Origin: Escherichia coli
GTDB lineage: Bacteria; Pseudomonadota; Gammaproteobacteria; Enterobacterales; Enterobacteriaceae
Assembly (NCBI RefSeq): GCF_003334255.1
Contig: NZ_QOWU01000051.1
DNA length: 41,368 bases
Reading direction: 5' to 3' (one strand)
Positions 22,621-22,850 of this stretch are shown piece after piece. Position 1 is the stretch's first letter, and every line of letters begins with the position of its first letter. Both the position numbers and the translations under genes were made by a program. The notes beneath the pieces are model-generated. The model saw nothing but the letters and a program-made list of their open reading frames with translations, was not told the origin of the DNA and ran no database searches.

Positions 22621-22648
22621 ATCCTTTTCAGCCGCGTATTGGCTTGTT

Positions 22649-22664
22649 TGCAAAGCGGATGCCA
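22649..22664 (-). promoter_or_regulatory. Sigma54 (-24/-12) promoter of rutA
   Basis: Minus strand reads TGGCAT-ccgct-TTGCA, matching the TGGCAC-N5-TTGCA consensus, about 30 bp upstream of the rutA start. Confidence 0.6.
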
Positions 22665-22750
22665 GTTTTTAAAAAGTTAATGTTATTAATCTGTTAACAT
22701 TACGTTATCTAAAATATCTGGTAAAAAGTGGACTAAACGGTCAAAACAGT

Positions 22751-22767
22751 TGCACATAAAACATGCA
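22751..22767. promoter_or_regulatory. Candidate NtrC enhancer site upstream of the rut sigma54 promoter
   Basis: tgcacataaaacatgca resembles the TGCACC-N5-GGTGCA dyad. Confidence 0.35.
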
Positions 22768-22850
22768 TCTGTGCGCGATGAGAGTGCAGAAGGTCGAGGC
22801 CGGGCGGGGGTTTTGCTATCCTGTTGCCAATCTACAAGAGGGGAGAGCGC

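Follow-up and report, generated by a model that had tools for sequence, protein, structure and literature searches.

glnAp2 and glnHp2 are the classic NtrC-activated sigma54 promoters. Both carry -24/-12 elements and two NtrC dyads about 100 to 140 bp upstream on one face of the helix, and glnHp2 has an IHF-type bend site between enhancer and promoter. The control region between rutA and rutR of E. coli was reportedly described by Shimada in 2007. The K-12 region (rutAp/rutR, b1012-b1013) is curated in EcoCyc/RegulonDB and has been treated by Shimada 2008, Bonocora 2015, Brown 2014, Aquino 2017 and Nguyen Le Minh 2015, and its whole architecture is drawn in Fig. 1a of a further paper (PMC10891134). 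NtrC dependence of rut expression is cited from expression studies in two papers (PMC4066584, PMC10891134).

The locus analysed here is this same K-12 locus; its sigma54 motif, its RutR box and the centres of both its NtrC sites agree to the base with the published coordinates. Nothing differs from the published region in the elements named by a first-pass annotation of the sequence, and every one of them is already published and curated. rutAp is like glnAp2 and glnHp2 in having a -24/-12 promoter with two same-face upstream dyads, and its putative IHF-type bend site would, like that of glnHp2, stand between enhancer and promoter. In contrast to these promoters, its NtrC sites are much weaker matches and are not recovered by NtrC gSELEX. 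Furthermore, the operator of a TetR-family repressor lies between its enhancer and its putative bend site, which brings in uracil as a second input. We read the region as a divergent two-input switch of the rut pyrimidine-catabolism operon, activated through sigma54 and NtrC and repressed by RutR under the control of uracil, and give this reading a probability of about 93%. In the literature consulted on the K-12 region, no description was found of three elements: the IHF-like site, the TGnTATnnT block near rutR and a block in the rutA leader.

The rutA-rutR locus and the genomes compared

The stretch of DNA analysed, hereafter the window, is 41,368 nucleotides long and comes from a K-12-like E. 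coli, with the rutA-rutR intergenic region at 22564-22850. The rutABCDEFG operon occupies 17120..22563 on the minus strand, rutB-G lying downstream of rutA. On the plus strand, rutR (22851..23489) encodes the TetR-family uracil-responsive repressor of 212 aa, and putA is annotated beyond it. The pathway had been called intact together with its regulator, and indeed all seven rut ORFs are open and, like rutR, full-length; the window is 99.958% identical to, and collinear without gaps with, an annotated strain in which rutA-G and rutR are intact. Positions 22540-22900 are 100% identical to K-12 MG1655, and 901 bases around the region were found in 5,422 of 5,426 complete E. coli genomes. In NC_000913.3 (window + 1,051,391), rutA starts at 1,074,011, window 22620 (382 aa), and rutR at 1,074,242, window 22851. 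The interval 22621-22850, to which the first-pass annotation had drawn attention, is exactly the K-12 intergenic region between the two divergent genes. Older coordinates used in papers equal window + 1,050,614.

IS1 termini in inverted orientation stand at both ends of the window (1-77 and 41291-41368) and are 100% identical to the IS1 end of E. coli KFu015, so that the window looks like a contig broken at IS1 copies. In KFu015, which is otherwise 100% identical to the window, an IS1 is inserted in the rutA leader at window 22610-22618 with a 9 bp target duplication, and separates rutA from its own sigma54 promoter.

One genome per species was scanned with RutR, giving 80 loci; rutA is divergent in 23 of these, namely 22 loci of other genera and a second E. 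coli. The 22 belong to Klebsiella, Raoultella, Enterobacter, Leclercia, Erwinia, Pantoea, Chimaeribacter, Rosenbergiella, Yersinia and two MAGs, and together with the window they form an alignment of 23 intergenic regions with a mean column identity of 42%. Its invariant columns fall on the -24/-12 elements, the core of the RutR box, the outer NtrC half-sites, A22688 and T22694-T22695.

The sigma54 promoter of rutA

The sigma54 (RpoN) promoter rutAp is CTGGCATCCGCTTTGCA at 22649..22665 on the minus strand, with the -24 GG at 22663-22662 and the -12 GC at 22651-22650, so that the GG-N10-GC spacing of -24 TGGCA and -12 TTGC elements is present. The annotated string TGGCAT-N5-TTGCA is found as TGGCATCCGCTTTGCA on the minus strand at 22664-22649; it is oriented toward rutA and has zero mismatches to the sigma54 pattern. 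It is also the sole match to TGGCA-N6-TTGCW in the 41 kb window, and 225 kb of flanking sequence hold 1 match. All 23 orthologous regions carry the pattern with zero mismatches in the orientation of rutA, and TGCCA (22660-22664) and GCAA (22650-22653) of the element are invariant among them. The rutA transcription start is predicted from the sequence at about 22638, 12 nt downstream of the -12 GC.

CTGGCATCCGCTTTGCA is verbatim the sigma54 ChIP-seq site OS10 (minus strand, gene rutA, PSSM 9.96; PMC4591121), and gSELEX with RpoN holoenzyme recovers the rutA/rutR spacer with peaks of 71% and 73% (PMC8743547). With a 17-mer identical to OS10 and the RpoN gSELEX, the promoter call stands. The ChIP-seq study reports no second rutA-oriented sigma54 motif in the rutA-rutR intergenic region (PMC4591121). 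One further sigma54-like match, TGGCAACAGGATAGCA (22829-22814, minus strand, 1 mismatch), was rejected as chance; it is confined to Escherichia, absent from every other genus examined, and overlaps the TGnTATnnT block. A sigma70 consensus scan of the control region returned no promoter on either strand, and the promoter or promoters of rutR are therefore not placeable by such a scan.

Two NtrC sites upstream of rutAp

The candidate NtrC dyad of the first-pass annotation, TGCACATAAAACATGCA at 22751..22767, is real. Measured from centre to centre, it lies 102 bp upstream of the sigma54 element, in agreement with the distance of about 100 bp that had been given; its own centre is at 22759 (about -121), and the site matches the consensus TGCACCAnnnTGGTGCA at 9/14 positions. 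The number of sites had been underestimated, however, since a second site, TGCGCGATGAGAGTGCA at 22772..22788 (centre 22780, about -142; 10/14 to TGCACCAnnnTGGTGCA), had been overlooked. The two centres are 21 bp apart, that is, two helical turns, on the same helix face.

EcoCyc NtrC sites are centred at 1073373 and 1073394, as quoted in the supplement of Aquino et al., which also gives an NtrC ChIP-seq summit at 1073395 (PMC5217608). Mapped to the window, 1073373 is 22759, the exact centre of TGCACATAAAACATGCA, and 1073394 is 22780, the centre of TGCGCGATGAGAGTGCA; the summit misses this distal centre by 1 bp. The assignment to NtrC is thus supported. For rutABCDEFG, under its former name ycdMLKJIHG, Brown et al. 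measured a 94-fold enrichment of NtrC by ChIP-seq, in a bin that corresponds to window 22607-22687 and is centred on the promoter, not on the upstream sites (PMC4066584). Since the same offset of the bins occurs at glnH and ddpX, we judge the promoter-centred bin to be a limit of resolution, not evidence against the upstream sites, and rejected these bins as a means to localise NtrC.

In the 23-region alignment, G22752-C22753 of the proximal site are invariant and its TGCAC is at least 90% conserved, and GTGCA of the distal site is invariant in 23/23 regions. A spacing of 20 to 21 bp between the sites is kept in 20 of the 23. No published NtrC footprint was found for the rut region.

The RutR operator

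The RutR operator, or RutR box, is TGGACTAAACGGTCAA at 22729..22744, centred about -98 from the predicted rutA start, and its edge is 6 bp from the proximal NtrC site. It agrees with the 16-bp palindrome consensus TTGACCAnnTGGTCAA at 11/14 positions and carries the critical A4 and T13. All 23 regions share the GAC...TGGT core, the GAC and GT columns being invariant. A weak operator candidate, ggactaaacggtcaa, had been proposed in the first pass; the string is real, but it lies at 22730-22744, a slip of 9 bp from the assigned position of about 22721-22735. The rating as weak was too cautious. TGGACTAAACGGTCAA is the experimentally defined RutR box, listed in Table 1 of PMC2475637 as the high-affinity RutR site for rutA on the basis of ChIP-chip/SELEX and EMSA. 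RutR binds the rutA-rutR fragment with a KD of about 8.6 nM and is released by uracil with an I0.5 of about 9 nM (PMC2952853), and a four-base operator-constitutive mutant abolishes the uracil-sensitive autoregulation of rutR (PMC4325133). Given the match to the published site, the KD and the mutant, the supposed weak candidate is a validated operator.

The role of RutR at rutA is worded as "activation" in one paper (PMC2952853) and as repression in others. The RutR box of carAB P1 belongs to the same 16-bp palindrome family and has a similar KD (9.5 nM vs 8.6 nM at rutA-rutR; PMC2952853). RutR works as a positive regulator at carP1, where it antagonises PepA from about -184 (PMC10891134), whereas at rutA it acts negatively, beside the NtrC enhancer.

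In Erwinia, Chimaeribacter, Rosenbergiella and Yersinia, there are often two tandem RutR boxes, 19 bp apart, the second being nearer the promoter. Compared with the single box of Enterobacteriaceae, the NtrC-proximal box of these two-box genera is displaced by one helical turn away from the sigma54 element.

Conservation, geometry and alternative readings

Within the window alone, the motifs are unremarkable. Sequence shuffles gave expected counts of 0.40 for sigma54, 0.79 for the NtrC dyad and 2.05 for RutR, and 33, 56 and 88 of 100 shuffles, respectively, contained one match or more. No motif singly beats chance in 41 kb, and within-window statistics therefore cannot settle the question. What sets the motifs apart from chance is their co-location and orientation, their invariance across genera, their depletion of SNPs, their loss in the absence of rutA and the published binding.

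The spacings are nearly constant. The distance from the sigma54 element to the IHF-like site is 34-36 bp in 22/23 regions; that to the RutR box is 79-81 bp in Enterobacteriaceae and 88-91 bp in Erwiniaceae and Yersinia. From the RutR box to the proximal NtrC site there are 22-23 bp, and from the proximal to the distal NtrC site 21 bp (20 bp in two loci). Eight divergent E. coli sequences have 34 variable intergenic columns between them. The 92 bp of the six elements contain only 3 of these, where 10.9 would be expected (P = 0.0009), and each of the 3 sits at a degenerate or outermost position. In 25 genomes rutR occurs without a nearby rutA, among them Citrobacter, E. albertii, E. coli E69, S. 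enterica arizonae, Kluyvera and Kosakonia, and 24 of the 25 have neither the sigma54 element nor the RutR box nor the NtrC pair. Thus, the sigma54, RutR and NtrC elements travel with rutA. Retention of rutR with no rut operon beside it is frequent in Enterobacteriaceae and is also seen in Buttiauxella; RutR is presumably kept in such genomes for other targets, e.g., carAB. In E69 and E. albertii, homology to the window resumes just right of the distal NtrC site, which puts the deletion endpoint at about 22789/22790.

These observations bear on the alternatives to a two-input switch. According to the first, the RutR box would serve autoregulation of rutR only, as a roadblock downstream of a distal rutR promoter, and would have no action on rutA. 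The operator-constitutive experiment did measure the rutR promoter only, and deletion of rutR alone left rutA mRNA unchanged, without induction, in exponential phase (PMC10891134). The latter result, however, fits a need for both nitrogen limitation and uracil, and no effect of the deletion is expected when NtrC is inactive. Moreover, the box keeps a fixed distance from the sigma54 element and the NtrC sites across genera, and it is lost where rutR persists without rutA, which is the opposite of what pure autoregulation predicts. We regard this alternative as unlikely.

Alternatively, the two dyads might not be a functional enhancer; NtrC might reach the promoter from elsewhere, either free in solution or bound at other sites, or the dyads might serve a different regulator, such as Nac or another enhancer-binding protein. 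In vitro NtrC gSELEX with a 40% cut-off does not include the rut region among its 93 listed targets, the consensus matches of 9/14 and 10/14 are weak and of a quality that is common (116 positions in the window reach at least 9/14), and the EcoCyc sites may be computational predictions. The omission from gSELEX is nevertheless consistent with two weak sites that need cooperative binding. Against this alternative stand the high-resolution ChIP-seq summit 1 bp from the distal centre and the TGCAC and GTGCA half-sites, invariant across 10 genera at a fixed 21 bp spacing. Such pairs have a background rate of 0.044 per kb, and the pair vanishes without rutA. A role of the dyads other than that of an NtrC enhancer is thus very improbable.

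The idea that an AT-rich intergenic region produced these motifs by chance, and that rutA is really driven by sigma70, accords with the lack of significance of each motif singly in the window but is effectively refuted already by the perfect sigma54 pattern in 23/23 regions against 1 match in 225 kb, the absence of any sigma70-like promoter on the rutA strand of the region, and the agreement of ChIP-seq with gSELEX.

The rutA start codon and leader

PGAP places the rutA start at ATG 22563 (363 aa) and K-12 RefSeq at ATG 22620 (382 aa). In 10 of the 22 other loci, in-frame stops break the 19-codon N-terminal extension of the latter before 12 codons have passed, and about 40 bp of the corresponding stretch are deleted in Enterobacter. 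A GAGG-type Shine-Dalgarno sequence precedes the short ATG at every locus (GAGAGG in the window); the long-start ATG 22620 has an AAGGA sequence just 1 nt upstream. From these sequence features, the true rutA start is likely ATG 22563 rather than 22620. The statement that the sigma54 element stands about 30 bp from rutA holds for the long K-12 start (29 bp) but not for ATG 22563. With the latter as start, the element is 86 bp away and the leader is about 74 nt long. This predicted 5' leader (22564..22638, minus strand) ends at the conserved ATG 22563-22561.

Inside the leader, beside ATG 22620, lies an invariant block, GCAGGATGCA (22619-22610, minus strand). It reads GCAGGA(T)GCA with an upstream AGGA, the whole covering 22610-22627, about +12 to +29 of the predicted transcript. 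The block is conserved from Escherichia to Erwinia and Pantoea and is deleted in Enterobacter. Judged by its two GGA motifs, it could be a CsrA-type site. A structured RNA in the leader was rejected (fold z-score +1.25, consensus energy -0.8 kcal/mol, no covariation), and so was an upstream ORF, the frame and ATG of which differ between Enterobacteriaceae and Erwinia. An Rfam scan of 22400-23000 returned only a sub-threshold RsmY match inside rutR (17 bits vs a gathering threshold of 57), which we attribute to chance.

The IHF-like site and a candidate rutR-proximal promoter

Between the sigma54 promoter and the RutR and NtrC sites lies an IHF-like site, TATTAATCTGTTA, at 22684..22696 on the plus strand, centred about -52. 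It matches WATCAANNNNTTR at 12/13 positions (C to T). Matches of equal quality are common, with 60 in the window. A22688 and T22694-T22695 within the site are invariant in the 23 regions, and Yersinia and one MAG have the perfect consensus. The constant position in 22/23 regions and the perfect consensus in Yersinia make IHF-assisted looping at rutAp, as at glnHp2, likely. No published report of IHF at rutAp was found. An AT-rich inverted repeat, TAATGTTA-N9-TAACATTA (22678-22702), was considered as an extra operator and rejected as a chance feature; six of its positions vary among E. coli strains, and it is unconserved across genera.

On the rutR side, an extended -10-like sequence, TGcTATCCT (TGnTATnnT), stands at 22814..22822 on the plus strand, 28 nt upstream of the rutR ATG. 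In the conserved block TTTGCTATGCTG, variation is confined to the degenerate -10 positions, and the block TTTGCTATCCTG at 22811-22822 has exactly the conservation pattern of an extended -10 promoter. The TGnTATnnT motif is kept 22-28 nt (mostly 26-28) from the rutR ATG in 15 of the 25 rutA-less genomes. This pattern makes the motif a candidate sigma70 promoter close to rutR, from which transcription would start near 22829; the consensus scan missed it for want of a good -35. The RutR box lies upstream of this extended -10, and the NtrC sites lie immediately upstream of it. According to published text, the RutR box is located downstream of the transcription start of rutR (PMC4325133). rutR either has a second promoter or has its main promoter elsewhere than drawn.

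Discussion

Published experiments established that sigma54 and NtrC occupy this locus, that RutR binds it and is released by uracil, and that autoregulation of rutR depends on the operator. The present analysis adds the sequence identity of the region to the published sites, their conservation and fixed geometry, and their loss together with rutA. A two-input switch would then operate as follows. The sigma54 promoter at 22665-22649 would drive rutABCDEFG leftwards and would need an enhancer-binding protein to fire. Under nitrogen limitation, phosphorylated NtrC would assemble on the two weak dyads (centres 22759 and 22780) on the same face of the helix and touch the closed sigma54 holoenzyme by looping of the DNA, the IHF-like bend site near -52 probably aiding formation of the loop. 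Without uracil, RutR on its one operator (22729-22744) would keep the operon off and rutR autoregulated, and uracil would release it. Judged by the position of its operator, RutR most likely blocks activation by interfering with assembly of the NtrC oligomer or with the geometry of the loop; this mechanism, the transcription start and the role of IHF are assigned by inference.

Further layers of control may exist, comprising an IHF site that is required for looping, a rutR-proximal promoter under NtrC and a leader element, GCAGGAUGCA. We put this combination forward tentatively and consider it rather less probable than its absence.

The rut operon is a textbook nitrogen-scavenging sigma54 operon with a pathway-specific repressor, and the finding matters little beyond confirmation. 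It adds an independent validation, by a footprint across genera, of the curated NtrC sites, whose consensus matches are weak and which in vitro SELEX did not pick up; a correction, likely on present evidence, of the rutA start codon in the K-12 RefSeq record; and three small conserved elements, i.e., the IHF-like site, the rutR-proximal promoter-like block and the leader block. If the further layers are true, the leader element would control rutA translation or mRNA stability, and NtrC, at about -49/-70 of the rutR-proximal promoter, could modulate rutR and thereby provide a feed-forward relief of repression.
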